Assembly: GCA_038528965.1 (NCBI GenBank)
Contig: JBCBEC010000022.1
Location: 4,640-68,639, forward strand
Length of the DNA: 64,000 nt
DNA from: Bacteroidota bacterium
Lineage (GTDB): Bacteria; Bacteroidota; Bacteroidia; Chitinophagales; Saprospiraceae
Direction: 5' to 3'
Below the pieces are notes generated by a model that did no database searches, had not been told where the DNA came from, and worked only from the letters and a program-made list of their open reading frames with translations. Both the position numbers and the translations under genes were made by a program. Below are positions 22,873-49,042 of this stretch, piece after piece (within the stretch, counting starts at the first letter, position 1; every line of letters begins with the position of its first letter).

Positions 22873-22944
22873 GGTCCCGTAGTACAACGGATAGTATGTA
22901 GGTTTCCGGAGCCTGAGATGGAGGTTCGATTCCTCCCGGGACCA
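22873..22944 (+). tRNA. tRNA-Arg (anticodon CCG)
   Basis: Manual fold: acceptor GGTCCCG/CGGGACC, D-arm GTAC-AACGGATA-GTAT, anticodon stem TAGGT/GCCTG with loop TTCCGGA (anticodon CCG), T-arm GGAGG-TTCGATT-CCTCC. CCA is not encoded. Confidence 0.85.
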
Positions 22945-23683
22945 CTTCTCTTATTTCAGCCTTGCTGATAATCAGTGGATTAGAACAACAAAAATCCGCG
23001 AGTTGTCGGCAGCGTTGACGCTTTACATGAGGAAGATACGAAAAGGTCAGATTTCTTTGGAGGTCTGGCCTTTTGCGATTTTAGACCCTATGAAGAAGAA
23101 AAACGATAGCTGTTAAGTGGGTGTAAGGAAAGCCAGTCAAGTTTGTTCTTGACTGACTTTTCGTTTTATACCAGTTTGTGATATACTGAAATTAATCTTG
23201 CTTATAGAATAGATGTTTTTTCCCAAGAGGCCTGCTTTGTTCAATATCCTTCAATTGTATTGAGTTTATTTATGTGGTATGATTACATGTGTTCTGCGTA
23301 CATCAAAACTTTTAGATTTTGATTAGGGATATACCTTATAGATTTACGAAAGCCTAAGCAAACATAGTGATAGTTGAAATTCACATAGAGGATTCAGTAG
23401 TCTACTATGGTTCCTATGCTTTCTTGTTTTTCAAAAAATGATAGAATCATAATTTTTACCGATTTAACCTCCCTAAAAATGACTAAGTATGCTATCTTAA
23501 AACTCTATTGTTTTGTCTGAAAGCAGATAGATAGTTTAATGATTTCATAATCATGTAACTAAAAACGGTTCCTAAAAAGTTGATTTGGTTCTCGCTCTGC
23601 AATTATTGTAGTATAGGACTACAACTATCATTTTACTTCTAATTAGAGCATTTGGTGATGCTGGAAACACACGTGCTATTCAT

Positions 23684-29199: not shown

Positions 29200-30729
29200 A
29201 TGCCAGATTTTGCCAACGGAAGATCTCGTGGTATTTCTCAGCAGTTTGCTGAAAAATATACTAGAGTGTCAAAAAGTAAGAACTATATATTGGGAATAGG
29301 TATCGATAACTATCAATATCTCAGGAGACTCCACAATGCTGTATTGGATGTGGACAGTATTTTGTCTGTATTGGTCAAGCAGTATCAATTTCAAAATGCA
29401 GAGATCACTAAAATTTACAATGAAAAATGCACCCGGAGTAATATTCTCCGTCAGTTGAGATATTTAGTTCAGCGGGTAAAAGAAACTGACAATCTCATCA
29501 TTTATTATTCGGGACATGGCATATTTGATGAACAACTAATGGAGGGTTATTGGGTGCCAGTTGATGCTCGATCTAAGGAAGAAACTATCGGTGAGTATAT
29601 AAGTAACGCTGACATCCAAAAACACCTTAGCCGTATAAAAAGTCGGCATACAATCCTATTTAATGATAGTTGTTTTTCAGGATCGATCTTTGGCGTTGAT
29701 AGAAATATTCAACAAGAGAAGCAGGAGGTATTACCATCAAGGTGGGCCTTTACTTCTGGCCGTAAGGAAGTTGTACAAGATGGTGTCCCTGGAGAGCACA
29801 GTCCGTTTGCTAAGAGTATCCTTAGAGTTTTGGAAGAGAACCGAAGGGAAAAACTATTCTTATCAGAACTTGTGAATTTGGTAACACTGGATGTAGATCG
29901 AAATACCAATCAAACCCCGAGGGGTAGTTACTTACAGAACACGGGCGACCGTGGAGGAAATTTCGCCTTTTACTCACGAGATCAAGAAGAAAGGTTTTGG
30001 AAAAAGCAATTGAGTCAGCCATCTCCTGAAGGACTCATTGCTTATCAACGCTATTATCCGTTGGGAAGCTATATAAATGAATCTGTTGACCGAATAAAAC
30101 GCTTGGTTCCTCCCGGAAAAGGATTAAATCCACTAGGACGCCCAGTATATACCCAAAGTGAAGTCACTGAAGTGTCTTCCAATCAAGATTGGCAGTGGTT
30201 AGTCCCGATTCAAAAAACAAGCTCAGCCACATCGTGGTCGCTGACGCAACTAGAAACATTTCTGAATAGCTCGGACTATCGAAAAGCCGACATAGAAACC
30301 TCTGCTATTATATTGAAATATAGTGGTTTGAAGTCGAGTGATTGGATGGGTGAGTCAGATGTTGCCTTGTTACCAAAGCTCCTTGTTGAAGAGTTGAGTA
30401 TGCTATGGGAGAATTATTCTGATGGGCGTTTTGGCTTCCGAAAACAGTATAGCATTTGGAAATATCTCGAAGAGACGGGAGGCAAAAATGCTAATAAGTC
30501 TTTACTCTTTGAAGAGTTCTCTCAACGGGTGGGATGGGCTACCACTACAAATGCAGAACTTATTTACGACTATGAGCAATTGCAATTCTCGCTGGATGCA
30601 CCAGAAGGGCATTTTCCGACGCTCCGGTTCGCTCACGCTACAAGCGATTTAGGTATTGGCTGGGGTAAGTATTGGGAGTCAATATTTTATAGTCTGATTA
30701 ACCGAATTGAAGCACTCATAAAAAAATAA
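29200..30729 (+). CDS. Caspase-like (peptidase C14) domain fused to a C-terminal GUN4-like domain
   Basis: Dyad 'LIIYYSGHGI' and 'ILFNDSCFSGS'. The C-terminal region 'SDGRFGFRKQYSIWK...FSQRVGWA' resembles the conserved GUN4 core (GRFGFS..Q..IW....F...VGW). Confidence 0.55.
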   Translation: MPDFANGRSRGISQQFAEKYTRVSKSKNYILGIGIDNYQYLRRLHNAVLDVDSILSVLVKQYQFQNAEITKIYNEKCTRSNILRQLRYLVQRVKETDNLIIYYSGHGIFDEQLMEGYWVPVDARSKEETIGEYISNADIQKHLSRIKSRHTILFNDSCFSGSIFGVDRNIQQEKQEVLPSRWAFTSGRKEVVQDGVPGEHSPFAKSILRVLEENRREKLFLSELVNLVTLDVDRNTNQTPRGSYLQNTGDRGGNFAFYSRDQEERFWKKQLSQPSPEGLIAYQRYYPLGSYINESVDRIKRLVPPGKGLNPLGRPVYTQSEVTEVSSNQDWQWLVPIQKTSSATSWSLTQLETFLNSSDYRKADIETSAIILKYSGLKSSDWMGESDVALLPKLLVEELSMLWENYSDGRFGFRKQYSIWKYLEETGGKNANKSLLFEEFSQRVGWATTTNAELIYDYEQLQFSLDAPEGHFPTLRFAHATSDLGIGWGKYWESIFYSLINRIEALIKK

Positions 30730-30734
30730 AACAA

Positions 30735-33266
30735 ATGGTAACTTATCTGGTTTCATTGGCAGTCGTTCTAGCTTCCTTATATATAGTCTATCGCTTACTA
30801 TTTACTGTAGTAAGAGTTCCTTATGATCACGTGATTGTTCTTGAGCGCAAGGCACTTGGAGTATCTCCTGTCAATCAGCCATCACCTGAAATGCACGGTG
30901 TGGCTGTTAAAGAAAATCAGCCCGGAATATTGCCGGAAGTTATGATTTATGGTGAAAAGCGAAAAATCTTGTTTAAACCGCTGTGGAAAATTAATCCTCC
31001 TACGAAAGTCATAAAGGTGAAGGAGGGAAATATTGGCCTAGTAACTGCACTGAAGGGAAATAACAGGGCAGATCACAATACTCCTGAACCTATATCGAGT
31101 GATTTGTTTTCATATGCTCAAGCCTTCTTACTTCAAGGCGGGGAAGCAGGTATCCAGTGTGAATTCCTGACACCTAACGAGTATCCCAAAATAAATCCCC
31201 ACGTTTTTGATGTCAAAATGATTGATGTAATTGATGTGCCAAAAGGGAAAATAGGCCTTGTCTACGCAAAAAAGGGGCGCTTCAATGCGAATAGTTTTCC
31301 CCCAAAGGTAGTACCATGCAAAAATTATAGTAGTGCATCCCTATTTATTGAAAATGGCGGATACATGGGCTTACAACGAGACTATCTAACTCCTGGACAA
31401 CATGCTATTAATACAGAATTCTTCGAAATTAAGTTGGAAGATCAGACCGTTGTTCCGGACGGAGAGATTGCCATTGTCTTTTCAAAGTATGGTCGGGTTC
31501 TTGATCAAGGTCAAAGACTTGGGAGAAAAATAGAATGTGAATCCTTTGAAAAGGCTGATTTGTTCCTTAATAATGGGGGGCAAAGAGGTCCGCAAAGGTC
31601 CCATCTTACAGGAGGTGTTTACTTCATCAACACCGAAATATTCACGATTGTTACATCGAGAGAGTTGGAAAGTGATGAGCTTCAGTCCAAGATTAAAAAC
31701 GAGTACGGATTTCAGTTGCATCCGATACAGTTGAGGCCCATCGTTATTCAAAACGACGAAGTAGGTATCGTAACAACTCGAATTGGGAAGCCTCTTTTAG
31801 ATGATGACATAGCAGCACCAAAACTAAAAGACCTCAGCACGGATATTACTGTATTTCAAGATGCAGAAATGTTTGTTGAAGTTGGAGGATACAGTGGACT
31901 TCAACTGGAGCTACTCATGGCTGGCACATATTATATTAACCCCTTGTTTGCCACGGTAGAAAAAGCAAAGTTTGAATATGTTCCTGAAGACAAAGTCGGA
32001 GTCTTAATATCAAGTTATGGCAAGAATTTAGGTAGCGAACTGGAAAAGGAAGTAGCTCTAAATGAAGGCAGTTTTTCGACCAAAGTAATTAATGATCTAG
32101 AAGATGAGGTCGTGGGCCTACAAACTGATGAACAAGCTACAAAACAACGACAACTAGCCCTAGATAATCTCGGCAAAATGAGAAATAAATTAGTGCAACT
32201 GGGCTCTAGGGGCGTACTAAGCAATACGCTACCGACGGGTTATCACCCCATTAACACGAAGGTATTCAAAGTAGAAACAGTTCCTACCAATGAAATCATT
32301 TTGGAGTGGACAAACAAAGAAAAACCTCCTACCAATTATGATGCAGGACTAAATGCAATTGAGATATTTACCAAAGACAAATATAAGCTACAAGTCGAGG
32401 TTACACAGTCTATTAAGATTAATGAAGAAAATGCACCGGTAATGGTGGTCATGGTTGGAGCACAGGGAGAAGAAGATGCCACAGACGGTAGTATAAATAA
32501 TAAGTCTAAATCGATTAAAAGTCTAGTCTCAAAAGTCTTGGCAAGTTCCGTCCAACAGTTTTTTGTAAATGCAGCTGCGGCGTTCACTGCTTATGAATTT
32601 ATTGAAGCTGAGCAGGAAAAAATTCGGCACATTATTGCTCGCGATATCAAGACAGCCCTAATTGCTAGAGGGGTTACAGCCCTTAATACAACCTTTTCAG
32701 TTCTTGGTGATAGTATTCCCGAAGCTTTACAAGAACGGATAGCAGCTGAACAGGAGAATATTAATGAGATTGAAAATCTCAAATTAGAGTCCATAAAAAT
32801 TAAGCAAGAAGAAGAAACAGAAGTAGAACGACATCGCCTACAACGTCTTAAAGATCGTAATGAGTTGGAGGCCAAGAAAGACCAACAGAAAAAAACTGAT
32901 TTCATTATCGAAAGCGAGCTAAAAGAAAAACGGATTCGCGAAGAGTTAAGAATAGCTCTTGAGAAAGAAGACATTCAATTGGAAATGAATAAACTCAAAA
33001 CGGAAATAGAATTAAAAGGCGGCCCTGCACTCATGTCTCTGCCTGATATACTTAAGAATTTTCCCAAACAGCTAGAACATGTGCAAAATTTAGTGATTAG
33101 TGGAAGTGAGCTAAAGGGGATTACTGAGTTTTCAAATAATTTTGGCTTGCTACAAATGCTTCTACAGCAATTTAACATTCCTTATCAGTTTAACAACGAT
33201 TCATTGTCTGCACGGGAGACTATCAGTGATAGTAGTTCTGCTTCCACAGGTCCTAAAGATGCCTGA
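30735..33266 (+). CDS. Membrane-anchored protein with ~6 tandem SPFH-like repeat units and a Glu/Lys-rich flotillin-like coiled-coil C-terminus
   Basis: N-terminal TM 'VTYLVSLAVVLASLYIVYRLLF'. A repeated module 'F...GG..G.Q...LTPG.Y.IN...F.......V..G.IG.V.S.YG' occurs about 6 times. The motifs 'VVPDGEIAIVFSKYGRV' and 'L.PG.H.IN' echo the SPFH/band-7 N-terminal motifs. The C-terminus is E/K-rich coiled coil. Confidence 0.55.
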   Translation: MVTYLVSLAVVLASLYIVYRLLFTVVRVPYDHVIVLERKALGVSPVNQPSPEMHGVAVKENQPGILPEVMIYGEKRKILFKPLWKINPPTKVIKVKEGNIGLVTALKGNNRADHNTPEPISSDLFSYAQAFLLQGGEAGIQCEFLTPNEYPKINPHVFDVKMIDVIDVPKGKIGLVYAKKGRFNANSFPPKVVPCKNYSSASLFIENGGYMGLQRDYLTPGQHAINTEFFEIKLEDQTVVPDGEIAIVFSKYGRVLDQGQRLGRKIECESFEKADLFLNNGGQRGPQRSHLTGGVYFINTEIFTIVTSRELESDELQSKIKNEYGFQLHPIQLRPIVIQNDEVGIVTTRIGKPLLDDDIAAPKLKDLSTDITVFQDAEMFVEVGGYSGLQLELLMAGTYYINPLFATVEKAKFEYVPEDKVGVLISSYGKNLGSELEKEVALNEGSFSTKVINDLEDEVVGLQTDEQATKQRQLALDNLGKMRNKLVQLGSRGVLSNTLPTGYHPINTKVFKVETVPTNEIILEWTNKEKPPTNYDAGLNAIEIFTKDKYKLQVEVTQSIKINEENAPVMVVMVGAQGEEDATDGSINNKSKSIKSLVSKVLASSVQQFFVNAAAAFTAYEFIEAEQEKIRHIIARDIKTALIARGVTALNTTFSVLGDSIPEALQERIAAEQENINEIENLKLESIKIKQEEETEVERHRLQRLKDRNELEAKKDQQKKTDFIIESELKEKRIREELRIALEKEDIQLEMNKLKTEIELKGGPALMSLPDILKNFPKQLEHVQNLVISGSELKGITEFSNNFGLLQMLLQQFNIPYQFNNDSLSARETISDSSSASTGPKDA

Positions 33267-33547
33267 CTTAGCAAACTGAGGAGAAGAATCAGAAAGCACC
33301 ACTTCATCTAATGATTCACACGGGCGGCTGACTAGTAAATAATTCCATTTACAGTATTTAGAAAGATCACAACTATACTCTCTGCTGGTACGCATTGTTA
33401 TTTGTGTCGTTCCAGTATGCCAGGTTACTTGAGGTGTTTCCCGATGGCAAACTAACTATGTGGGACCGTTATTTATTTCGTCCTGTTAACTCTTACATGA
33501 TGGAATCAATAGGTTTCTGAATTTTAAAAATATCTAAAATAATAACT

Positions 33548-34918
33548 GTGTTTTCCAGAGTAATTAAGATCGATGATATCATTGCTGTTTCGGTGATTCT
33601 TGGCGGAGTCGTATTTCTCGTTTTTCGGGAAATGAGTCTTGGTATTCTCTCTTCTGGCCTTTTTATGGGAATCAGTCTCCTTATTAAATTCAGTGCTCGT
33701 AGGAAGAGCCTAGTCTTGGATTCAAATGCTGATTTTGCCGACGTTGAAGCAAGAGATATTTCAAGCTTTACAAGTTTTGTTTGTGAACTTGCAGGCGTAG
33801 ATCCATTACCCTTGAAGCAATACTTTCCGTATGAAATATCTAAGTACTTTGCTCTTGGGATGACAATCGTATTCACGGGAATTCTTGCTGCGGTTTCGGG
33901 AGGATATGCGATTTACAAAATATTTGATAACATCTATGCTAGTCTTTTGGTAGGGGTGCTTTGGGGGGCTTTAGTTGCTAATATTGATAGGGTAATGGTG
34001 ATGTCTATATCGAAATATCATTCACTTTTGGGGCAATTTATTCGTGCAATTCCTAGGATTCTGTTAGCTATCATCATTGCACTAGTGATCTCTAAGCCGA
34101 TTGAAGTTCGTTTTTTTGAAAACCGACTTCGAGCTGATCTAACTAAAATGAAAAGCCTTATTGATAGTACTAATATTAATAAGGCAACTAGTACTTTCAG
34201 GGTGGATGAAACTAGTCGTAGTCGTTCAATAGCACTGCAGGAAGTAAATGACATTAGGCAACAGCAACCCGATATTCCTGCTTTATTAAGCGATGAATTA
34301 GCCTTACAGCAAGGGGAATATAACCGGATAAGTCGAGATGTGCGATTTATCAGAAGCGAGCTACTCAAGCTACGAGGGGCTGATTCTCTTGGAAGGCAAC
34401 AGTATTCTAAAGTTCAAAATGAAATAGCCGACTATCAAGAGAGGTTAGGCCGTGAAGAGATAAGGCTTGGTAAGATAAATGATAGAATACTACAGATTCA
34501 AACCGAAGTTAAAGACATAATAAGCGCATTTAGAATTGATAATGAAAAAAAACTGACTGAAGCATCGCGTAGATTAGATTATTATGAAAAGGAAAAGTTC
34601 CGAATAGATTCTCTATTGAGCGGAGAAATAGGAACCATAAAAGCCAATAGTGCAGCTTTGTTTTCTAAAGGGACTTTTATGCTGGAGTTATTACTTTTAG
34701 AAGATTTAAAAAGGGAGGATAAATCGATTTTCTGGGTAAGTCTAGCTATATCACTATTGATGATCGCTGTAGAGACTATGCCAATTTTTGCTAAGCTATT
34801 GGCCCCAGCTGGGAGTTATGATTATTACCAAAAGTTTTTAACTGATCGTGTTAAAGCAGAAGCCAAAAGGCGCATCGAAGAATCTTGGCAACCACGACCC
34901 GACGAGGAGGAAGAATGA
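33548..34918 (+). CDS. Multi-TM membrane protein with long coiled-coil (DUF4407-like)
   Basis: Four N-terminal hydrophobic helices including 'LLVGVLWGALVANIDRVMVM', then ~250 aa of coiled coil and a C-terminal TM. Confidence 0.5.
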   Translation: MFSRVIKIDDIIAVSVILGGVVFLVFREMSLGILSSGLFMGISLLIKFSARRKSLVLDSNADFADVEARDISSFTSFVCELAGVDPLPLKQYFPYEISKYFALGMTIVFTGILAAVSGGYAIYKIFDNIYASLLVGVLWGALVANIDRVMVMSISKYHSLLGQFIRAIPRILLAIIIALVISKPIEVRFFENRLRADLTKMKSLIDSTNINKATSTFRVDETSRSRSIALQEVNDIRQQQPDIPALLSDELALQQGEYNRISRDVRFIRSELLKLRGADSLGRQQYSKVQNEIADYQERLGREEIRLGKINDRILQIQTEVKDIISAFRIDNEKKLTEASRRLDYYEKEKFRIDSLLSGEIGTIKANSAALFSKGTFMLELLLLEDLKREDKSIFWVSLAISLLMIAVETMPIFAKLLAPAGSYDYYQKFLTDRVKAEAKRRIEESWQPRPDEEEE

Positions 34919-35069: not shown

Positions 35070-37196
35070 ATGGAAGGTAATGGTCAATTGGAGAAGGGAT
35101 TTTTAGCGGATGCCGCTATGCTCCACGATAAATTTAATCGGCTAGAACGTTGTTTTGAGGTTGCTGCTGATTACATTGAAAATAGCGAGGATATAGCATT
35201 ACTTTTTGCCAGTAGCGATAATCGGGCTTTGATCAATTCACTAGCAGAACCTGAATTTCAGGTAGGGATTGCGGGCTGGTATTCTGCTGGGAAATCGACG
35301 CTTATAAATGCAATTTTCAAAAAGAAGAAATTCTTGCCAGAAGGGACTGCTCCAACTACAGCTTTTCCAACCTTTATCAGGAAATCTACTAATGGGAAGG
35401 AGCGTGCAAAAGTGACCTATCTTAGTGAATCAGATCGTAATAACTTAAAGCGAGAGTACGTCACTAATATTTTTGAAACATTAGCCTTGCCTAAAAATCA
35501 TCTAGAGCAACTGCTAGCATTACCGAATAAAGAAATGTTAGCAGGACTGGAAAAAATGATCGCTAGTAAAGGGGGAGAAAAGGCCCACAATAATTCTTTA
35601 CAGTGTCTGAAAGTACTCATCAAGCACTATGAGTCCGAACTTGACACGAACCCTGATCCTGTACCTATCGATAAGGCGTTACAAATTGATGAGAGTCATG
35701 ACAATAGTACAATCATTAAGCAAGTAGACATCTACCTAAATGATTTGCCCTATGATGACTATGTTGTTTTAGTAGATCTGCCGGGATTAGGCTCTAACAA
35801 CATTCGTCATGAACAGATTACTCGAGATATTGCTTTTCAGAGTGCTACTAAGTCTTTTGTTTTTGTATTTGCTGCCACGGGTACGGCTAACGGGGAATTA
35901 GAGGATTTTATTATAAGTTTAAACAATGAAAAGCTACCAATAAGCGATTCTTTTTGGGTGATTAATAAATGGACTGAGCAAGCTGCTAGTGAGCAAGTTC
36001 AAGAAAATTTTTTCCGGGATTGGCGTAAACGACAAGTAAAGATTCAGTCGGACCGCTTTTTTACTATCCCATACAGTGAACAGTTATTGGAAGATCCCAA
36101 TTTTGTGCGAAAGGTAGAGCTTTTCAAAGAACAGCTCTTTAGTTTTCTAATGCGGCAGGCCCAACGTGAATTTCTGGGTAAAGCAGAAAATCTGTACCAG
36201 CGCATTTCCAGTAAGATCGGTACAGCTTTGGTAAAAACAGAGCTACCAAAGAATGTGGACGATGATGTCTATATTTTCAACGAGAGTTCAAAATATTTTG
36301 ACCACTGGATCTCATTATTAGAATTCACCATTGATAGCGCATTAAAAAAGGCTTTCAAGAATGCAGATCTACCGGCATTCGACTTGCTCAAAACACCTGA
36401 TATAGAACAAATTGGAGTAGAAATTGAGCAGCAGTTTGACCTAGACGAGGCGGCGGAATTGGTTTTACTATCACGGCTGGTCAAACAAAGTGTTAATACT
36501 CCAGATTTTGTCAATATCTTGAGGGAAGTGCTGAATAAAGTAGACCCTGCCCAACTAGTGCGGGAACATTTGCAAAGTGATACTGCGCAAGCACTCATTC
36601 ACGAACTGTTCCAGCCTTTTACCGCTCTGACCAACCAAACCATAGCCATTGGTAGTAAGCAGCTTCCATTGTCAGACTTTATTCACAGAAGACTAGAAGA
36701 AATCATTAATGTGAATAGTATCCTATTCCGTATTGACGGAGTTGTGGACGCAGTGTACGTTCAGGTAGTCGATGAACTCATTGTTTTCTTAGCAGAGAAA
36801 TTCTTAACGGAGTTTATTAATGGTTCTACAACAGAAGCAACTGACAATACAAATACGACTCCGGCCATTTCCTCTGGGGTATATGAAGAGCGTACTAAGG
36901 CTATACTACAGGAAATACCTCGTTACATTGTTCGCTACCTTAAAGACAAACAGACTAATGTTAATCTACAACTCCGTAATACCCAACAAACCCACTTTAA
37001 ATACGTCAAATCACGCTTAGATCAACTTCTGAGAGAAGAAAGTTTTCGATCTACTGTTCGTATGATGATCATGGAAATCGTTAGGGCTGATGCCGCCCAT
37101 TATCTTGATTTAGACGATGCCAAGAAAAAAATTGATGCCATCCACGAACTCCAAAGCCTGGTGGCAAAGCGGGAACCTAACTTATCTCACACCTAA
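35070..37196 (+). CDS. Bacterial dynamin-like GTPase
   Basis: G1 'GIAGWYSAGKSTLINAIF', G2 region 'TAPTTAFPT', G3 'VLVDLPGLGS' (the dynamin DLPG), G4-like 'VINKWTE'. The 708-aa length with a long helical stalk is typical of BDLP/DynA-type proteins. Confidence 0.7.
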   Translation: MEGNGQLEKGFLADAAMLHDKFNRLERCFEVAADYIENSEDIALLFASSDNRALINSLAEPEFQVGIAGWYSAGKSTLINAIFKKKKFLPEGTAPTTAFPTFIRKSTNGKERAKVTYLSESDRNNLKREYVTNIFETLALPKNHLEQLLALPNKEMLAGLEKMIASKGGEKAHNNSLQCLKVLIKHYESELDTNPDPVPIDKALQIDESHDNSTIIKQVDIYLNDLPYDDYVVLVDLPGLGSNNIRHEQITRDIAFQSATKSFVFVFAATGTANGELEDFIISLNNEKLPISDSFWVINKWTEQAASEQVQENFFRDWRKRQVKIQSDRFFTIPYSEQLLEDPNFVRKVELFKEQLFSFLMRQAQREFLGKAENLYQRISSKIGTALVKTELPKNVDDDVYIFNESSKYFDHWISLLEFTIDSALKKAFKNADLPAFDLLKTPDIEQIGVEIEQQFDLDEAAELVLLSRLVKQSVNTPDFVNILREVLNKVDPAQLVREHLQSDTAQALIHELFQPFTALTNQTIAIGSKQLPLSDFIHRRLEEIINVNSILFRIDGVVDAVYVQVVDELIVFLAEKFLTEFINGSTTEATDNTNTTPAISSGVYEERTKAILQEIPRYIVRYLKDKQTNVNLQLRNTQQTHFKYVKSRLDQLLREESFRSTVRMMIMEIVRADAAHYLDLDDAKKKIDAIHELQSLVAKREPNLSHT

Positions 37197-37209
37197 AAAA
37201 ATAACACTT

Positions 37210-38106
37210 ATGTGGGTATGCAGTAATGATGCCACTCATCAGTTTCCAGAACGGACTGAAGATGGGTTTTGTCCGCATTGCAGTTTTCGGGGTACGCTAA
37301 TTCCCGAAGCCATCGACAAATTAGATGATCAACCGCAAGGAACAGTACCCAAAGGAGAGCAGGGGGAACAAAGAGATGTAGGCCTTTGCATTTTGTTGAT
37401 GGATGCTTCAGGTTCTATGTCAGAAAAACCATTTTCCAATGCTGAGTCTACTAAGGCAGAGTTGATTGCACGCTCAGCAGCTCGCGGCATCTTTGATCTA
37501 GAAAGCATGACCATGACTCAGAATGCTTACCTCTGTATTATCATGTTCGATGCTAACGTGAAGCAGATTGCTTTCGACACTGTATCTAATCTACTCAGAA
37601 AACACCACCGGGATCCTATTCGCTTTGAGCAGTTTTTACTGTCTAAACTGAAAGAAATGGGAGGAATGACTGATTTAAACAAGGCTTTACTAGCCGCCGA
37701 AGCACTAGCGAATAAGTTCTTGAACAAGTCTATTCCCTCTTTTCAGGACTACACAGTCATGAAGCATCGTATTATGAAAAAGGATGCGAAAACCATCAGT
37801 GTGCCCAATGTCCGTGTACTCCTCTACACAGATGGACATCACAATGCCACTGGAGAGGTTGTGGTAAACCCATTTCAGGGACAATCACCAGACTTACTAA
37901 TGGGAGCCTATTTTGGAGCAGCCTCAGATAAGGGCAATCAGCAATTAACGGCTATCCTAAGTGAATGCCCAGTACACGAAGGTGTTTTGCAACATTTCTT
38001 GTTTGATGACCCGACCAATGTGGGCTCCTTGCGTCATTTATTTAGGATGGCCTCTAACACTTCCGGTTTTTGTCCCAAGTGTATGAATATATCGGCAAGT
38101 GTATGA
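37210..38106 (+). CDS. von Willebrand factor A (vWA) domain protein with N-terminal zinc-ribbon
   Basis: N-terminal 'WVCSNDATHQ...FCPHCSF' is a Cys4-like ribbon. The MIDAS motif 'ILLMDASGSMSE' plus downstream 'LYTDGHHN' make up the vWA fold. It starts 14 nt after the dynamin-like gene. The ORF-track start at 37117 lies inside that gene and is rejected. Confidence 0.65.
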   Translation: MWVCSNDATHQFPERTEDGFCPHCSFRGTLIPEAIDKLDDQPQGTVPKGEQGEQRDVGLCILLMDASGSMSEKPFSNAESTKAELIARSAARGIFDLESMTMTQNAYLCIIMFDANVKQIAFDTVSNLLRKHHRDPIRFEQFLLSKLKEMGGMTDLNKALLAAEALANKFLNKSIPSFQDYTVMKHRIMKKDAKTISVPNVRVLLYTDGHHNATGEVVVNPFQGQSPDLLMGAYFGAASDKGNQQLTAILSECPVHEGVLQHFLFDDPTNVGSLRHLFRMASNTSGFCPKCMNISASV

Positions 38107-39791
38107 GAAAGCTATTATTTTTCCTCCCGCTGTGTATAAGCACAATTGGTACTGTGACGGCTCAAGCATACTACCAACTCCAATTGGATTATCAGACTGA
38201 TGTTTGGGTATATGAATACCTAGTGGGTAAGGATACCATTTATCTTCATCACAACGAGATCTTTTTAGCAAAAGAAGAAGAGCAAAGACAGGATACTATC
38301 TGCCTGCAATTTGCTCAAGAGTTTATCTGTATACCCGATAGCCTACTGAAGGAAATACACCCGAGATTATCGGCTACTGAATTTCGTGTTGACATAGATA
38401 CAATACAAGTTGGTGATGAAATTCATTTAGACTTCAGCGACATCCTCAGTGAAAGAACTCCTACCATCTGGATTTTACCTTACGGCGAGAGAAGTGCCTG
38501 GAAACGGTCATATAATGGCAGTAAAAGCTGCAATCTGACCAATACTCCATCTTGTAGAATATGGGCAAGGGGACTACCCTCTCTGTTCTATGAAAATGAC
38601 TCCCTTTTTATTCCGAAGACGGAAACAGTAAGCGTAGATTCAAATAGCCTAATTGAGCAGGAGCACCTTGAGCATCAATTGAACGCAACTCAGATTATCG
38701 TAAGCGACCTAGAAAAAGCATTGGAACAGAAAGAAAATCAGAGTAAAAAAGAACATCTTTTCTTCGTCTTACTTCTAGCGACCTCACTGTTTGGCTGTTA
38801 TTTTTTGTTTCAAAAAGTGGATCAACTCCGTATAGTCAATCGTGACCTACAGGCAGTAATAGCGGGGGTAAAGACTAATTATAGTAAAGAAATCCTTAAA
38901 CCGATAGCATTAACAGAACAAGTAACTTCAAAACGAACTTTCGGTATGGAAATACTTGTTTCGGCAGGCCCCCGAAAAATGTTCAGTACCGAGGATAATG
39001 ATCTTGACTTGGGAGAAGATATTGGGGGGTGCCTGCAGTTAGGCGATAGGCTATATTTCTGGGTGTTAGATGGGACGAGTCAGAGTGCTATTTTGCGCAA
39101 TTCCAAGCAAGAAGATCTGTTTTCGAGCCGCTATCTAGCGCAAAGTATTGCGGCTTTTCTTCAACAATCACTCCGACGTACTAATGGCCAATTACCAGTA
39201 CGTACTGCCTTGCTGGAGAGTATTGAAGGGGTTCGTCAGGAGTGGGAAAAAAACATCAACGCCTTGACGGAAGAGCGCAAAACAAAGATTCTCAATTTCT
39301 TAATTGACAATATTCACGCAACCTGTTCAACAACCGTACTGGTGGGGTGCCTAACTCTGGAGGGAGAACTGAAGTGCTGCCGTATTGGCGATTCCTTCCT
39401 GTTTGCCTACGACAAAAATGATGGTCTCGTACCCTCTGCTCTCTCCACCAAACCTGGAACCGAGCGCTATGATCGCCAATTTTTCCGATTACAGCGCACA
39501 ATTGGGGAAGACCAGGTAAAAGTTGTTAGCAATGAAATACAGCCTGAGTTTTGGTCCATTACGGATATTCAAAGGGTAGTTGTTGTTTCCGATGGAGTGG
39601 GAATATCAACCCGTACTTGGTTGAAGCATCTAGACGCCCTAAATAATCCGCAGAACTACCGATCAATTGTCGGTAAGATCCCGCAAGCAACCCAGGATGA
39701 CAAAACCTTTTTAATAGTGGAGATTATAGAACAACCCAACGAATCAGAATCGCTAAAGGTAGAACCTAATCATGAAAGTCAGGATATTTGA
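38103..39791 (+). CDS. Membrane-associated PP2C/SpoIIE-like serine/threonine phosphatase-domain protein
   Basis: Start taken at 'MRKLLFFLPLCISTIGTVTAQA' (signal). Its ATG overlaps the vWA stop (ATGA). There is a mid-protein TM 'LFFVLLLATSLFGCYFLF'. The C-terminal 'YFWVLDGTSQSA...VVVVSDGVG' resembles the PP2C metal-binding DG/SDG motifs. Confidence 0.5.
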   Translation: MRKLLFFLPLCISTIGTVTAQAYYQLQLDYQTDVWVYEYLVGKDTIYLHHNEIFLAKEEEQRQDTICLQFAQEFICIPDSLLKEIHPRLSATEFRVDIDTIQVGDEIHLDFSDILSERTPTIWILPYGERSAWKRSYNGSKSCNLTNTPSCRIWARGLPSLFYENDSLFIPKTETVSVDSNSLIEQEHLEHQLNATQIIVSDLEKALEQKENQSKKEHLFFVLLLATSLFGCYFLFQKVDQLRIVNRDLQAVIAGVKTNYSKEILKPIALTEQVTSKRTFGMEILVSAGPRKMFSTEDNDLDLGEDIGGCLQLGDRLYFWVLDGTSQSAILRNSKQEDLFSSRYLAQSIAAFLQQSLRRTNGQLPVRTALLESIEGVRQEWEKNINALTEERKTKILNFLIDNIHATCSTTVLVGCLTLEGELKCCRIGDSFLFAYDKNDGLVPSALSTKPGTERYDRQFFRLQRTIGEDQVKVVSNEIQPEFWSITDIQRVVVVSDGVGISTRTWLKHLDALNNPQNYRSIVGKIPQATQDDKTFLIVEIIEQPNESESLKVEPNHESQDI

Positions 39792-41007
39792 TAAAGAATA
39801 CAACTACACTTCTGATTACACTACGAATAGCGATAATTGGAAATTTCAGAACCGCGATGATTTTACGATTACGCCTGTCAAAATTGGCGGATACCCCTGC
39901 TTTATCAAGCGCTTTGAGCAGGAGCCACCGGGTATTAGCGGATTAAAACTATTAAGAGGTAAGTTTATCGAGAACCTGCCCATTGTGCATGATGTAGTGA
40001 CGGATCAGGAAGATAATAGGCCAGTCACCTATTTGTTTTTAGAATATCATCCTGGAAGGACCTTGACGGAACAGTTGCGAGAAGGCCTAGAAATTAGGCC
40101 ACAGGTTTTAGTAGAAGATTTGTATCAGGCACTCGCTGACTTGCACGAACTGGGTTTCTGGCATACTGATTTTTGCGAAAAAAATATCTACTATTCTTCG
40201 CGTGCCAAGCGATTCATAATCATTGACCTGGATAGTATAGAACACGTTTCTAATCTGCCAACACCTATTCCCCATGAGCCAGGTGGTTTACTAAATCAGG
40301 ATTTCGCCATCGTAGCTAGAAGTTTTCTCAACGAGTACATAGGCACCGACCACAAGTTGAACAAAGATCTATCTGGAGTGACGTTAAATTACTTTCAATT
40401 ACTCGTGCTGATCGCTAAACTTGGCTTTTATATCGAGCAAAAGCAATTGAATACAACCTTTAAGTATACTCTTAGTAATTTCGATGATTTGCACCATTAC
40501 ATGCACCATAAAGTATCAAAACCTGGCCAAGCCATTTTTAAAGCGGGAATCGCTCGGGAAGGAGGGAAACTGAGACGCAAAGAAGTGTTAGCTTTTGCGG
40601 ATGAAATACTTCCGTTAGGTACAGTATACATTCTATCAACGCGTAATCGGAAGGAAGTGATCTCCTCTCCTCAGATTCTATCTTTTTTAGCCAATGGTCA
40701 AAGCGGTAGAGTTAAGGTTCGGAGAGGTAAAAAAATACGAATATCCTGGAGTGTAAAATACGCTGATGAAGTACAATTCAATGAACAGGCTTATCACCAA
40801 TTGTGTCATCACATTAATATACCCGTACAACAGAATATGGAGCTGAATCTAATGGTAACGGGGACTGTAAATGGTGAATCCATTACGAATAAACAAACGA
40901 TTGTCGTGGAGATCAAACTTCCCTCAACTGGTACTTACTTATTGATCTTTTGTACCGTATTCATCCTGTTATTAATACTTTGGCTAGTTTTTTCTCCAAT
41001 AATTTAG
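39772..41007 (+). CDS. Ser/Thr protein-kinase-like protein with C-terminal TM anchor
   Basis: Catalytic-loop-like 'HTDFCEKNIYY' (HxDxxxxN) followed by 'IIIDLDS' (a DFG-equivalent). C-terminal hydrophobic 'LLIFCTVFILLLILWLVF'. Overlaps the upstream gene by 20 nt. Confidence 0.5.
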   Translation: MKVRIFDKEYNYTSDYTTNSDNWKFQNRDDFTITPVKIGGYPCFIKRFEQEPPGISGLKLLRGKFIENLPIVHDVVTDQEDNRPVTYLFLEYHPGRTLTEQLREGLEIRPQVLVEDLYQALADLHELGFWHTDFCEKNIYYSSRAKRFIIIDLDSIEHVSNLPTPIPHEPGGLLNQDFAIVARSFLNEYIGTDHKLNKDLSGVTLNYFQLLVLIAKLGFYIEQKQLNTTFKYTLSNFDDLHHYMHHKVSKPGQAIFKAGIAREGGKLRRKEVLAFADEILPLGTVYILSTRNRKEVISSPQILSFLANGQSGRVKVRRGKKIRISWSVKYADEVQFNEQAYHQLCHHINIPVQQNMELNLMVTGTVNGESITNKQTIVVEIKLPSTGTYLLIFCTVFILLLILWLVFSPII

Positions 41008-44000: not shown

Positions 44001-45229
44001 AACAATGGCTGGCCACATCTAGTGATACCCGAGTTATCATCTGGAATATAAAAGGGGAACAATTACTTACGATACAGTGTAAGCATCCGGTATTGCAATT
44101 GGCCTTTATTCCCAATCGAGACGATTTCCTCTACTGCCTGGATCAGACAGGAACATTATTCTATGTTAAATTGACCCGTTTACAGTTACCCAATCTGTCT
44201 GCTGGTGTTATTAAAGAAGGGCTGCGTTCGATTGTTTCGAATGGGGAATACCAAGGAAATTATCACTTTGTGGGTGTAGAAATGCCACACCGACAGCAGC
44301 GACTCTACTATTGGGTAGCAGATCATACCAGGATTGTTCAAACTAGAGAATGGACAGTTCCCATGCCGATGAATGCTATCATTCCGCTGTCAAAATTAGG
44401 TATGTTAGCAGCGGCGGGTACAGATGGGAATATCTACTTCCTTAATTTGACAGACAAAGATAACTTCACAATAACTCCTCGGGCCCCACAATTAGCTCCC
44501 ATCTCTACTCTAGTTACGGATCAGCAACAGGACTGGTTAGCGTGGGCCTCAGCTCCAAAAACTGATTTACGCTTCAAGACCAGTGACCCAACTATCAACT
44601 TCATGCGATTCAACAATAAGACAGCAAAGAGTTGTCCCGTGGTATTGTATCATCTCGATACCAGAAAAAGTAGAGTGTTAGCCAGTTTCCCTGAAAATGT
44701 TATCCAATTACTATTCCACCCCAAGGAAGAACAAATTCTTATTGCATTAGAAAATGGCCTGATACAGCTCGTTGATTTTCAAGGTGTAATTCACTGGGAT
44801 TCAAAAAAGGATGGTTACCAATTCGGGCAGATCGATAAGATAGCGATCAGCAAAGATGGTAGGCGGTTGCTGATCGGAGGTGAGAAGTTGATTCTCATAA
44901 ACGATTTCAAAGACTTGGATCAACTCACAGCGGCAAAAGAAGGTGTAACCGCTATCGCACATGATCCCACCGGTGGGTATTTCGCCACTGGTTCAAAAGA
45001 TGGTTACCTACAAATATGGGCTGTCGATGGTACGCTATTAATCACATTTTTGAATGGAGAAAGCAACCGCCCAGTAACCTGCCTATCCTTTACTCCAGAT
45101 GGTAAATATCTAGTGGCCAGCCAAGATTATCAAGGGAGCTTTAAATGCTGGCATTCTCTAAAAGGAATGTTTGACACAGTGTTCATTCCTAAGCTTCCTA
45201 TTAGTAATAACAGTAATGCAAATATTTGA
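41015..45229 (+). CDS. Tripartite caspase-like protease / STAND-type NTPase / WD40-repeat protein (1404 aa)
   Basis: Caspase dyad 'VVIYFAGHGE' and 'LILDCCFAGAF'. P-loop 'FLHGSTYTGKKSV' in a ~350-aa NACHT/NB-ARC-like module. The C-terminal ~600 aa has WD40-like units ('FSPDGKYLVASQDYQGSFKCW', 'IAHDPTGGYFATGSKDGYLQIWAVDG', 'LAWSSHEQWLATSSDTRVIIWN'). Starts 8 nt after the kinase-like gene. Confidence 0.75.
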   Translation: MSNQLLQPYFSRHLAFLIGVQEYQYLNDLETPLNDVHDLAEVLKKEHGFQVENPLLNPDKASLEAYIRDYIPQKVKEEKNDRVVIYFAGHGEADINEEGSPQGYLLPSDALSGNTSSSVPMSLLHSVVEALPCQHLLLILDCCFAGAFQWDVKKRGYSKSQMGNRLFRAYFARNAEKKARQVIVSTGDDQKAVDILDRRLDRNSPFAAGLIKGLQGLADNPKNGFISISKLVGYVDTSLEVTLSGNGEVIRQKAFAYTLNNHEHGEFFFCSPYTKISLWDDDYRINPFKGWAAYEEADAYRFYGRDEDMEQLLDTLEQHKYTFLHGSTYTGKKSVVTAGLLPELKSRNLSVCRLIVGQIDQVEFVKQIERYHRVIVICPSDVHLQVARENIKTVLEATAKRSDIHVLCCADTHLYEQLPIGDWAKFGPIESLKLKSLTRLSLRDMIENPLVFRGFGFEPAKLPEIILEELRPTLAPLPLLSATMHATFQDFIAEGRPTRMITLQNFQRTGGVQGVFIKQFKTALEQLDSDARQWVMLLLSRFIQQSDHLVLSRDVQLQELEYEDPTITTHILALLDHLHKAGVLFRKRNTYQFAYPLPISSWPPLQTWLLSIGQDKIDLQRELWLATTKYERSKQNEVRIVGKENSETAEGLWGSHLELAKALTLMHSQPYFFNSQEKAFLTESQAQRESILVEKSLVGAKSIAKHSPNFALRLLENLHRKHPKKKSILNALEELLSNSLFYGVFANPPVTSEAKQFCFHPSGKYLFLLKDQFLEVVNWITGQKNTLSLSTAPIQMQAYREAEAILLLLPGKLHCLDAMLATEWTKEIPEDITSFAIGETTGHVYLMSQLGVVSWITTEGGVYGQQTIEALKVGKFLQVDPKEEYLLMGGQVGASVAHGQLGLFLIKDGHSRWALQQKKKINLLQKLSTRNIGLQAIAFSPDSQIIAVGLGSEQIIFSRTKKKYGEVVLYDLSGQQLALLEGFKGNVLALAWSSHEQWLATSSDTRVIIWNIKGEQLLTIQCKHPVLQLAFIPNRDDFLYCLDQTGTLFYVKLTRLQLPNLSAGVIKEGLRSIVSNGEYQGNYHFVGVEMPHRQQRLYYWVADHTRIVQTREWTVPMPMNAIIPLSKLGMLAAAGTDGNIYFLNLTDKDNFTITPRAPQLAPISTLVTDQQQDWLAWASAPKTDLRFKTSDPTINFMRFNNKTAKSCPVVLYHLDTRKSRVLASFPENVIQLLFHPKEEQILIALENGLIQLVDFQGVIHWDSKKDGYQFGQIDKIAISKDGRRLLIGGEKLILINDFKDLDQLTAAKEGVTAIAHDPTGGYFATGSKDGYLQIWAVDGTLLITFLNGESNRPVTCLSFTPDGKYLVASQDYQGSFKCWHSLKGMFDTVFIPKLPISNNSNANI

Positions 45230-45342
45230 TAACCGTATGTCGGCTCCTATTTACTCCTCATAACGTTACTTCCCGAATAGAGGTAGGCTTTTCTCAGATT
45301 GCTTTTTGTTATCTTTGTTCGCGAGTTTATATACAATTAAAA

Positions 45343-45627
45343 ATGGCAGACCAATCGGCAAAACTTCTGGAAATTTGTTTAGAAAATCCTTTGCTACAGA
45401 ACCTAGTTAAGGCTTTGGCAGAGGAGCTTAAAACAAGTAGTAATGATGAAGATGATTGGATTACAGCTGGGGAGGCAATGACAATACTTCAAATTTCATC
45501 TGCAACAACATTGAAGAAGTACAGAGAACAGAACGAGATCAAGTATAGCAAGCCTTCTGGTATGAAGCGTATCTTCTACAGTAGAAGTTCCATTCTCAAA
45601 TTCTTAGAAAAAAAATCTAATCATTAA
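45343..45627 (+). CDS. Small helix-turn-helix DNA-binding protein (excisionase/HTH_17-like, common on Bacteroidetes mobile elements)
   Basis: Internal start 'MADQSAKLLE...'. HTH-like 'WITAGEAMTILQISSATTLKKYREQNEIKYSK'. Lies at the cargo/backbone junction. Confidence 0.45.
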   Translation: MADQSAKLLEICLENPLLQNLVKALAEELKTSSNDEDDWITAGEAMTILQISSATTLKKYREQNEIKYSKPSGMKRIFYSRSSILKFLEKKSNH

Positions 45628-45905: not shown

Positions 45906-46952
45906 CTATGGCCTTTCTCGTAGTTTCTTTTTCACAAAGTTGACGAAAGCCCCATCTGCCTTTTCTGGGTTAAATCCATTCATAAGCTCATATGAAAACT
46001 GCGTGTGTAAGTTATCAAAGGACCAAGCCGTTCCTGATTGTTCGACCATCTGTCTCACCTTTTGTAGGGTTTCTGGCTTGATACTTGGAAGGTCCTTTAG
46101 CTTCATGACCGGTCTAAGTAAGCCAAATTCTACCTTGTCCTGTTCGTTTAATCGTAGCCAATAATCGGGTAAATGATCGTCCTTCTCGATCTGGCGAATG
46201 AAGTAGCGGAACTTCTTCAGCGAAGAAGTAGAACCAGTCTTTTCTTTGAGCTTTGTTAGCGAAATACTCCAGCTTTCCTGTTTGCCACAGTGCTTTCGAG
46301 CAATCTCATACAAGCGTCGCTCTAGCGCTTTTCCGAGCCAAAAATAACGACGACTTATAGTGAGTACCTCTTTACCGATGATAGAATTGAAGAACCATTC
46401 GGATAGGGTGATTTCCAAGCGGAGCATCCGGTTTTTTACCCTACTGCTTTCAATGATTTCGTAACTATCAATCAGACCAAAAGCGGAAGTGATTTCTCGT
46501 TTATCGGTCTTAATATTCGTTTTGATACTTACCCCTTGTAAGCGATCTAATGCCTTTTTGAGGAGGCCGTAGCCTTTGCCATTGGTTGGGCGGTTTGTAG
46601 CTACTAGGAGATCGTGACTGGATATTCTTAGTGTTCGTTTTGGTGTATTTCCTCTATTGATTGCATCCATAAGTAAAGACGCACAGTAGAGCAATACGTC
46701 TTTATCGAAAATAGTGGGTAGGCCCAATACGCTAGGAGCTATTCGTAAGGTGCTAGTACCATTGGTGTATTCCAATGTCCTAACATCCCGATTTTTGGAT
46801 AGCGAGAAAATGGGATGTTCCATTGAAGCAATGTCATCCTTAAGCGGCAGATTGTCAAAAATATCGGCGATGAAGAAGTCCTTGGTGGGGTGCCTTTCTG
46901 GAGCGAGTGTTGGCTTTACGGGCTTTAATTCTAGTGATTGCTGCATAGTCAT
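45906..46952 (-). CDS. repA: Replication initiator protein (RepA-family of Bacteroidetes plasmids/mobilisable elements)
   Basis: N-terminal 'FFIADIFDNLPLKDDIASMEHPIFSLSK' is characteristic of the replication-initiator-A family. Iteron-like direct repeats lie immediately upstream. Confidence 0.55.
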   Translation of the reverse strand: MTMQQSLELKPVKPTLAPERHPTKDFFIADIFDNLPLKDDIASMEHPIFSLSKNRDVRTLEYTNGTSTLRIAPSVLGLPTIFDKDVLLYCASLLMDAINRGNTPKRTLRISSHDLLVATNRPTNGKGYGLLKKALDRLQGVSIKTNIKTDKREITSAFGLIDSYEIIESSRVKNRMLRLEITLSEWFFNSIIGKEVLTISRRYFWLGKALERRLYEIARKHCGKQESWSISLTKLKEKTGSTSSLKKFRYFIRQIEKDDHLPDYWLRLNEQDKVEFGLLRPVMKLKDLPSIKPETLQKVRQMVEQSGTAWSFDNLHTQFSYELMNGFNPEKADGAFVNFVKKKLRERP

Positions 46953-48046: not shown

Positions 48047-49042
48047 ATGCCAGCAAAAGTCATCAATAATACACAGTGGGCAAAGGAGAATATTTCTATG
48101 CCAGAGTTGCTGAGTCGCTTTGGCCATGAACCAGTACAGGCAGCTAAGAGTGGAAATGAGCTATGGTATATTTCTCCGTTTCGCTACGAAAAAGAACCTA
48201 GCTTTCATACCTCCTATTTGGGAGGAAAATGGATATGGAATGATTTTGGCCGAGGTGATGTACAAGGGAAAGGGACGGTAATTGGGTTCTTGGAACTTCA
48301 TGAAAATGTAGACATCAGCGAAGCACTCCAAATTCTGAAGAATCTGTTTCCACATAGGGGGACACCCGCTTCGATGGATGTGCTTAAGCGATTACCACTT
48401 TTCAAAGACATCGTACTTCATCAGCCGATGGAAGAGAAAGAAAAGGACTCCCTCGCTCTAGAAGTTTTGGATGTCAAAGAACAGATTTGGGACAGGAATT
48501 TGATTGGTTACCTATCAGGGGAACGGTGCATCAATCATCAACTGGCCCTACCTTACTTGCAGTGCATTAAATACAGGAATGTACGGACTGACAAAACCTA
48601 CCAAACCCTAGGCTTTGTCAATCTTTCGGGAGATTATGAGTGTAGAGATAAGTATTTCAAGGGCATACTGAGAGCACCCGATGCACAAGGCAGAAATACA
48701 ATTAAAGACATCTCCTTTGTACAAGGAACAAGCCAAGATGAAGTAGCCGTATTTGAGGGCTTCATGGATTTTTTGACGGTATTGACAATCAAGGATGTTC
48801 CAGTGCTCCCAGTGGACGTGGTTGTTCTGAACATGGTAAATATGAGACAGAGAGCGATGGAGTTTATCCGCTCGCAGAAGTACAAAACCGTATACACCTT
48901 TTTTGATAACGATAATGCAGGAGAGAAAACGACTCAACTATTTCAAGACAAGTTAGGAGAAGTAGTGAAACCTCAGAACCATCTTTATCAAGGCTACAAG
49001 GATTACAACCAGTACTATCAGGAACAAAAGAGAACGAGCTAG
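48047..49042 (+). CDS. Toprim-domain DNA primase-like protein
   Basis: C-terminal 'VYTFFDNDNAGEKT' is the Toprim acidic motif. The N-terminal region resembles primases of Bacteroidetes conjugative transposons. Confidence 0.55.
   Translation: MPAKVINNTQWAKENISMPELLSRFGHEPVQAAKSGNELWYISPFRYEKEPSFHTSYLGGKWIWNDFGRGDVQGKGTVIGFLELHENVDISEALQILKNLFPHRGTPASMDVLKRLPLFKDIVLHQPMEEKEKDSLALEVLDVKEQIWDRNLIGYLSGERCINHQLALPYLQCIKYRNVRTDKTYQTLGFVNLSGDYECRDKYFKGILRAPDAQGRNTIKDISFVQGTSQDEVAVFEGFMDFLTVLTIKDVPVLPVDVVVLNMVNMRQRAMEFIRSQKYKTVYTFFDNDNAGEKTTQLFQDKLGEVVKPQNHLYQGYKDYNQYYQEQKRTS

Follow-up and report, generated by a model that had tools for sequence, protein, structure and literature searches.

The protein encoded by the open reading frame (ORF) at 30735-33266 in a 64,000-nucleotide (nt) stretch of DNA from a Bacteroidota metagenome-assembled genome (contig JBCBEC010000022.1; hereafter the window, to whose positions all coordinates refer) is, judged from its homologues and a family profile, a member of the SPFH/Band-7 superfamily. 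It is referred to here as the SPFH-repeat protein and belongs to a co-directional gene run, the region under study, in which it is preceded by a caspase with a C-terminal GUN4 domain and followed by a DUF4407 membrane protein (Table 1). According to structural models, its repeat unit is an SPFH1-type β module, and the order along the chain (repeats, shoulder, cap helix) is the domain plan seen in the major vault protein (MVP) with a transmembrane (TM) helix added at the N-terminus. Overall, the protein is probably a membrane-anchored, half-vault-like SPFH scaffold within a conflict or cell-death system that also comprises the GUN4 effector and the DUF4407 protein.

A search of 5.8 billion proteins yielded 274 relatives, and all of the 120 that were listed carry PF01145 (Band_7/SPFH) among their precomputed domains. 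The names of these 120, where they have one, are SPFH domain-containing, flotillin family, band 7, or YqiK, and for fusions VWA or DUF4407 domain-containing; the NCBI label of this very protein (MEL6834923.1) is "SPFH domain-containing protein". When the query and P0002, the relative closest to it, were rescanned, Band_7 was absent even at E ≤ 10, the precomputed record giving a weak match for P0002. In contrast, homologues at 27-33% identity passed the Band_7 cutoff of 23.6 (89.4 bits for P0016, 78.7 for P0010, and 66.5 for P0006), and the match in the rescanned relatives started within the last repeat unit. Because homologues pass Band_7 while the query does not, the SPFH homology of the query is transitive. 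A family profile (A1; 82 members) searched against PDB sequences retrieved HflC (E = 1.1e-4), QmcA (1.3e-4), flotillin-2 (1.3e-3), erlin-2 (4e-3), and prohibitin-2 (6e-3); phmmer of the query against the same sequences gave noise only (e.g., TCP-1).

Thus, the resemblance of the repeat unit to SPFH/band-7 motifs, pointed out in an initial annotation of this DNA, is borne out by the Band_7 matches of the homologues, by the profile matches to HflC and QmcA, and by the modeled fold (see below). The designation "flotillin-like" is not, at least in its narrow sense. Orthology to FloT/YqiK was considered and rejected: the NCBIfam FloT equivalog NF058507 did not match the query, and relative P0016 scored 26.9 bits where the cutoff is 700, in the coiled coil only. 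The operon partner of bacterial flotillin FloT/YqiK is of the NfeD type (YuaF/YqiJ; Hinderhofer, 2009; PMC2636767). No such partner was among the first 25 of 33 neighbor families listed in each set, the neighbors being caspase-GUN4 and DUF4407 proteins.

Both ORFs of the initial annotation, 30735-33266 and 33548-34918, exist as described there. Internal repeat detection had been proposed as a check on the former; self-BLASTP of the protein gave no off-diagonal high-scoring segment pairs, and the tandem units were then confirmed by hidden Markov models (HMMs) and shuffle tests. The four full units share 31-40% identity pairwise, with Smith-Waterman z-scores of 12-21 (versus 500 shuffles), and each was recovered by an HMM from which it had been omitted (E = 2e-13, 2.3e-21, 2.2e-11, and 3.4e-14). 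Partial units flank them at residues 91-109 and 490-516, both with independent E-values of about 1e-4; the former gave 1e-4 to 3e-3 in three of the four leave-one-out models and 0.19 in the fourth. Counting a degenerate first module (residues 24-95), the AlphaFold2 model contains six SPFH1-like modules, which makes the original estimate of about six copies a fair one. The unit length of ∼55 residues given there applies to the conserved core (about 55-58 residues) but not to the period, which is 73 residues. The TM segment postulated at the N-terminus is supported by a hydropathy peak at residues 8-26 and a modeled helix at residues 2-22, and the E/K-rich helix postulated behind the repeats spans residues 663-760, with 28 acidic (D+E) and 21 basic (K+R) residues among 98.

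The AlphaFold2 model, computed on the family alignment, had a mean pLDDT of 81, with values above 90 through the repeats. When the whole chain was submitted to Foldseek, the top 12 matches were all vault (MVP), with E-values down to 1e-12, and the R1-R7 fragment of MVP, which does not include the shoulder, was matched with E = 1e-6. For a two-unit fragment modeled alone (residues 88-258; pLDDT 90.6), MVP was again the best structural match; next came erlin, HflC, HflK, stomatin, and QmcA, each matched in its SPFH1 part. It is from these matches of fragment and whole chain that the SPFH1-type nature of the unit and the MVP plan of the chain follow. An SPFH2 α/β fold lies behind the β-rich SPFH1 part and before the long helix, and MVP is matched in the fold of the repeat unit as well as in the order of repeats, shoulder, and cap helix. 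The comparison of the predicted repeats with SPFH structures, as suggested in the initial annotation, therefore favors its view, and the β-solenoid adhesin that it had named as the refuting outcome was not obtained, since both models match MVP and SPFH1 only. Its statement that the repeat architecture was not recognizable as described has to be revised: there is a counterpart, as MVP carries multiple SPFH1 modules (PMC11348225).

The likeness to MVP has clear boundaries. Unlike the soluble, closed 78-mer formed by MVP without membrane association, the query and 110 of 121 relatives contain a TM helix, the exceptions to this hydrophobic N-terminal anchor being truncated records or DUF4407 fusions. 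Neither Pfam Vault nor MVP_shoulder was detected at E ≤ 10 in the query and six relatives, nor does either occur in the precomputed annotation of any of the 120 homologues listed. A profile of the unit (A5; 65 units) searched against PDB sequences gave sub-threshold dUTPase matches only, and no MVP or SPFH.

The sequence family is not new, being already annotated as SPFH or flotillin family, and the "novel" of the initial annotation does not hold in this respect. When 1.84 billion representatives were searched exhaustively with HMMER, 1,053 clusters (at 50% identity) were obtained with E ≤ 1e-30 and 2,767 with E ≤ 1e-10. No description of the repeat architecture, the variable unit number, or the gene context of the family was found in the literature. 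The modal form has ∼630 residues and three units (92 of 121 members), and the number of units across the family spans from 0-1 to 14 at a strict spacing of 73 residues, with a Symploca protein of 1802 residues as the 14-unit example. Among 36 long relatives, C-terminal fusions to VWA (13), nSTAND1/AAA_16 (2), and also PP2C_2, CHAT, and EAD11 were observed. Three relatives (P0162, equal to L034:3528-8936, P0163, and P0164) contain 12-14 perfectly spaced 73-residue units in up to 1802 residues, and P0162 ends in a VWA domain. Using the unit profile A5 in the homologue search was uninformative (11 short fragments only). Three-unit relatives are also encoded by viruses: on 108 IMG/VR viral contigs, many of which are longer than 100 kb, in a 642-kb uncultured huge phage (LR756502.1:343892-345547; 63% identical to P0016), and in Vibrio phages of roughly 160 kb (MG592609.1 and MW824375.1), one of them with the annotation "SPFH domain / band 7 family protein".

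Gene context was sampled from three database contigs and 51 genome loci, mostly of filamentous cyanobacteria (Moorena, Okeania, Nostoc, Calothrix, Trichodesmium, and Microseira), together with Chloroflexota, Myxococcota, and Planctomycetota. In 22 of 37 loci, the immediate upstream neighbor of the SPFH-repeat gene encodes a GUN4-domain protein, and in about 26 of the 29 cyanobacterial non-fusion loci with readable flanks, GUN4 is at most two genes away. The heads of the upstream GUN4 proteins are interchangeable (Peptidase_C14 in five, Pkinase in four, CHAT in three, Trypsin_2 in two, and also EAD1 and TRADD-N). The two genes are often tightly spaced, 5 nt separating the caspase-GUN4 stop codon from the SPFH-repeat start in the window, while they overlap in L004. 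Across many genera, the closest relatives, with identities of 51% and about 33%, keep the order GUN4 effector, SPFH-repeat protein, DUF4407 protein. With GUN4 effectors upstream in this many loci and fusions to vWA, STAND, CHAT, PP2C, and EAD11, the functional tie to caspase and signaling genes proposed initially appears well founded.

DUF4407 is encoded downstream of the SPFH-repeat gene in 7 of 26 loci. Six Moorena loci (L005, L014, L016, L020, L024, and L036) encode a fusion of about 1025 residues in which DUF4407 comes C-terminal to the SPFH-repeat protein, directly after the SPFH2 core; these fusions have neither an N-terminal TM helix nor a GUN4 neighbor, which indicates that the membrane anchor has moved from the N- to the C-terminus. 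The DUF4407 assignment of ORF 33548-34918 is firm (PF14362; 165.9 bits with a cutoff of 31.3; E = 1.7e-48; residues 94-426 against model positions 8-291 of 297). The four TM segments initially ascribed to this protein are too few: five hydrophobic segments were found (residues 8-26, 101-119, 125-143, 164-182, and 397-415), and a probable sixth at about residues 29-47 passed the cut-off in the L001 homologue only. The N-terminal extension is present in that homologue as well. For DUF4407, no functional literature was found other than three incidental mentions.

In L004, a vWA-fused relative is followed by vWA, PP2C, and kinase-GUN4 proteins, recalling the PP2C and kinase-like genes of the window. 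The gene sets of L017 and L019 are colinear as judged by size and end with a GUN4 protein. If the downstream genes of the window form a vWA-PP2C-kinase triad, ORF 37117-38106 lies at the place where the standalone vWA would be expected. In a sub-clade (L011, L022, L028, and L029), a kinase-GUN4 gene is located upstream, and downstream an FHA-Pkinase protein of about 470 residues replaces DUF4407. Residues 332-479 of the caspase-GUN4 protein match the PADLOC PD-T4-6 model PDLC04062 (E = 3.8e-20), which suggests that kinase-GUN4 proteins were probably included in the models of this anti-phage family.

By exact sequence, the window corresponds to a section of a 110,024-bp contig of a Bacteroidota metagenome-assembled genome (NCBI proteins MEL6834922-25 and others). 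Its left flank carries genes of Bacteroidota type (a Reg_prop/Y_Y_Y histidine kinase, a pullulanase, and a flippase). Behind a tRNA-Arg gene, a caspase-rich block begins, across which the GC content is 0.37-0.42; besides three caspases, the island adjoining the tRNA-Arg contains a STAND-WD40 protein and mobility genes. From the tRNA-Arg, the drop in GC, the caspase-rich block, and the genes for HTH_17, RepA, primase, and relaxase, it follows that the module probably resides on an integrative mobilizable (or conjugative) element in the region 22873-54501. A second copy of the 3′ end of tRNA-Arg, as a possible att site, was not present within the window. One island protein of 1404 residues has an apoptosome-like architecture in which Peptidase_C14 is combined with an nSTAND1 NTPase and with WD40 propellers, and gives sub-threshold matches to the TEP1 β-propeller models.

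The module, GUN4 included, is otherwise typical of filamentous cyanobacteria, yet it is found here in a Bacteroidota genome. This points to horizontal transfer and to a role of GUN4 unrelated to chlorophyll. Because the host belongs to a phylum that is not known to make chlorophyll, GUN4 is suggested to be a docking or ligand-sensing handle here rather than a Mg-chelatase cofactor. A cyanobacterial origin of GUN4 is stated by Kaur et al (2020; PMC7159879).

Table 1. Features of the gene run and of the adjoining island, by window position.
Feature	Positions	Strand	Basis or remark
tRNA-Arg(CCG)	22873-22945		
Caspase (Peptidase_C14) with C-terminal GUN4	29200-30729	+	Pfam: C14 69.6 bits, GUN4 86.6 bits; PDB GUN4 4ykb, E = 1.3e-6
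SPFH-repeat protein, 843 aa, ATG start	30735-33266	+	tandem SPFH1 modules, MVP-resembling domain plan (models)
N-terminal TM helix, aa 8-26	30756-30812	+	hydropathy 2.23; modeled helix aa 2-22
Partial unit, aa 91-109 (strand V.EG.IGLV..KG), closes degenerate first module	31005-31061	+	leave-one-out HMM
Repeat unit 1, aa 125-183	31107-31283	+	HMM/alignment
Repeat unit 2, aa 198-254	31326-31496	+	HMM/alignment
Repeat unit 3, aa 271-352, with 25-aa helical insertion	31545-31790	+	HMM/alignment, AlphaFold2 model
Repeat unit 4, aa 374-431, then helical-hairpin insertion aa 433-485	31854-32027	+	HMM/alignment, model
Partial unit, aa 490-516, SPFH1 part of canonical SPFH domain	32202-32282	+	HMM; Band_7 matches in homologues begin at equivalent last unit
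SPFH2 α/β core (shoulder), aa 517-660	32283-32714	+	
Long E/K-rich helix, aa 663-760, equivalent of SPFH CC1 and MVP cap helix	32721-33014	+	DSSP on model
C-terminal tail, aa 761-843, low confidence, probably disordered	33015-33263	+	pLDDT 30-50
DUF4407 polytopic membrane protein, 456 aa, GTG start, 214-aa charged coiled-coil loop	33548-34918	+	PF14362
Dynamin-family GTPase	35070-37196	+	Dynamin_N 61.2 bits, cutoff 27
329-aa ORF, overlaps 3′ end of dynamin gene by 80 nt	37117-38106	+	no Pfam or PADLOC match
PP2C_2 phosphatase	38070-39791	+	34.6 bits, passes
Weak kinase-like ORF	39772-41007	+	below Pfam cutoffs
Caspase-nSTAND1-WD40 protein, 1404 aa	41015-45229	+	same island
HTH_17	45226-45627		
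RepA (PF10134)	45906-46952	−	
Toprim primase	48047-49042		
MobF/TrwC relaxase	51676-54501	−	

Every SPFH complex solved to date is a cage (PMC12624060). Because all of these assemblies are rings or cages held by their SPFH domains and CC1 helices, the SPFH-repeat protein would be expected to form a homo-oligomeric dome, a "half-vault", at the inner membrane, on its cytoplasmic side. The number of subunits in SPFH assemblies is given as 0.1782 × CC1 length + 10.22 (PMC12624060); extrapolated to the SPFH-repeat protein, this regression yields 27.7, that is, a dome of perhaps about 28 subunits, whose wall height would be set by the count of SPFH1 modules. The bulk of the protein is predicted to be cytoplasmic because basic residues lie C-terminal to the TM helix and because the orientation predicted for relatives with a leader-like segment followed by a TM helix is the same. 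It is proposed with less confidence that, at a membrane patch, the cage would scaffold, enclose, or sequester the DUF4407 protein together with the GUN4-tagged enzyme. GUN4 might be the common adaptor, as a docking or sensing handle, and a trigger might release or activate the enzymes within the mobile conflict or programmed-cell-death island; both steps are, again, proposed with less confidence than the dome itself. The adjacent dynamin gene would be a lineage-specific addition.

Several observations weigh against this half-vault proposal. The 843-residue protein itself matched no model of Pfam, NCBIfam, or PADLOC (in PADLOC, no model covers the SPFH-repeat protein or DUF4407), its resemblance to MVP is structural only, without a match at the level of sequence, and pLDDT falls below 60 in the long helix beyond about residue 700. 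A non-coding gap of 281 nt (33267-33547) separates the SPFH-repeat gene from that for DUF4407, and DUF4407 is missing from many loci. Finally, the common three-unit relatives of Bacteroidota lie in unrelated neighborhoods, for example, next to DUF4140/DUF4139 or polysaccharide genes, from which it follows that the scaffold is not intrinsically a conflict-system protein. The DUF4407 gene may have its own promoter. A scan of 29.0-37.3 kb for promoters and terminators gave nothing above the shuffled expectation; a promoter-like site is found at 33315-33343 in the 281-nt gap, not above chance in that scan.

The neighborhoods of these three-unit relatives, which include FKBP and polysaccharide-synthesis genes besides DUF4140/DUF4139, are also an argument for a different explanation, namely, that the protein is a housekeeping scaffold of membrane microdomains, like flotillins and stomatins in general, and is carried in the island without any functional tie to caspase, GUN4, or DUF4407. 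That the host is itself a member of the Bacteroidota, and that the annotation of relatives says no more than flotillin or SPFH family, is consistent with it. However, a mere passenger would hardly account for the conserved order of GUN4 effector, SPFH-repeat protein, and DUF4407 in the closest relatives of many genera, for a caspase-GUN4 gene only 5 nt away, or for the direct fusions of relatives to DUF4407, VWA, nSTAND1, CHAT, PP2C, and EAD11; moreover, the gene lies within a low-GC mobile island and outside the chromosomal backbone. A housekeeping role is therefore considered unlikely.

Distinctly unlikely is a membrane-surveillance or repair arm, as envisaged in the initial annotation, in which the SPFH-repeat protein, DUF4407, and the dynamin-like GTPase would detect or mend membrane damage and pass a signal on to the death operon. 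In the window, the three genes lie next to each other in the same direction, the dynamin gene weakly matches the LeoA and DynA models, and a part in membrane integrity is ascribed to flotillins as well as to bacterial dynamins. Nevertheless, among about 50 related loci, a dynamin gene beside the module occurs in the window only, so that the co-occurrence check proposed along with the dynamin link speaks against it, and even here 151 nt separate the dynamin gene from that for DUF4407. Genes for proteins of 707 residues near the Okeania relatives, considered as dynamin candidates, turned out to encode glycogen-debranching (CBM_48/α-amylase) enzymes. An extracytoplasmic β-repeat stalk or adhesin in place of a cage wall is most improbable and was rejected: the signal-peptide-like segment ahead of the TM helix in some cyanobacterial relatives and the faint CshA_repeat matches of Pfam in some relatives (below the gathering score, the 14-unit protein excepted) stand against models that match MVP and SPFH1 only, basic residues behind the TM helix that predict a cytoplasmic bulk, and partners (VWA, STAND, CHAT, and PP2C in fusions, caspase-GUN4 as neighbor) of kinds that are generally cytoplasmic enzyme or signaling domains.

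The half-vault proposal can be set against several known systems. Compared with the membrane-bound cages of HflK/C, prohibitin, erlin, stomatin, QmcA, and flotillin, which have one SPFH1 module, the SPFH-repeat protein has six, and its partners are DUF4407 and GUN4-tagged caspase, CHAT, trypsin, or kinase proteins; by its suggested mode of action, the cage would be analogous to HflK/C-FtsH. Bacterial "MVP homologues" have been reported before: a band 7 protein of Herpetosiphon threads onto MVP (Daly et al, 2013; PMC3762200), and others were found by BLAST from MVP (Sokolskyi, 2019; bioRxiv 10.1101/872010). Herpetosiphon A9AUD4, which is among them, is annotated as a band 7 protein (PMC3762200; bioRxiv 10.1101/872010). 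They share with the SPFH-repeat family a predicted MVP-like fold and an occurrence in gliding or filamentous lineages (cyanobacteria, Bacteroidota, Myxococcales, and Chloroflexi). However, they were retrieved by BLAST or PSI-BLAST with MVP, and InterPro labels some of them MVP, whereas none of seven rescanned members of the SPFH-repeat family had Vault or MVP_shoulder, and the TM anchor, the variable unit number, and the linkage to GUN4 and DUF4407 are described in neither of the two reports.

The partners recall the conflict systems described for multicellular prokaryotes (Kaur, Burroughs, Iyer, and Aravind, 2020; PMC7159879), with which the module has in common caspase, CHAT, trypsin, EADs, TRADD-N, vWA, and STAND NTPases, as well as the pairing of PP2C and kinase and fusions of GUN4 to caspases, kinases, and trypsin. 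That study mentions "Band7-like domains" as superstructure-forming effectors. There, the Band 7 domain belongs to a vWA-MoxR (VMAP) architecture with cNMP cyclase-Band7-HAD; a protein composed of TM helix, SPFH1 array, and SPFH2, with GUN4 upstream and DUF4407 downstream, is not described in the passages considered. The linkage of the family to GUN4-tagged caspases, CHAT and trypsin proteases, and kinases, together with the vWA, STAND, PP2C, and EAD fusions, suggests a membrane-bound compartment in which cell-death or defense effectors are held or from which they are launched, and provides DUF4407 with a first functional context.

The closest comparison is that with the vault. From eukaryotic MVP (PDB 4V60, 9MXJ, and 3GF5), with a unit of about 55 residues, the SPFH-repeat protein differs in its unit of 73 residues with the helix-loop motif FQDA..F..NGG..G.Q, in a unit count that varies from 1 to 14 across the family, and in its N-terminal TM anchor, the vault being soluble and closing into a 78-mer. 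The vault has been regarded as the odd one out among SPFH assemblies, with its many SPFH1 modules, its solubility, and no known function (PMC12624060; PMC11348225). It houses TEP1, an NADase with NACHT and WD40, and the ADP-ribosyltransferase PARP4 (bioRxiv 10.64898/2026.05.01.722283), and the proposed cage would be analogous to it in this respect also. The SPFH-repeat family joins the tandem SPFH1 modules that define the vault to a membrane anchor like that of ordinary SPFH cages, and its module number (1 to 14) would make cage height a simple read-out. The sets of partners run in parallel: vWA fusions, a STAND NTPase, WD40, and protease or NTP-dependent effectors on the side of the family, and on that of the vault, TEP1 with NACHT, WD40, and a TIR-like NADase, and PARP4, which contains a vWA domain in addition. 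That the family is the prokaryotic, membrane-anchored counterpart of the vault, possibly even its relative, housing or gating immune or cell-death effectors, is rather unlikely; if it were true, the function and origin of the vault would become open to study in a tractable bacterial conflict system.

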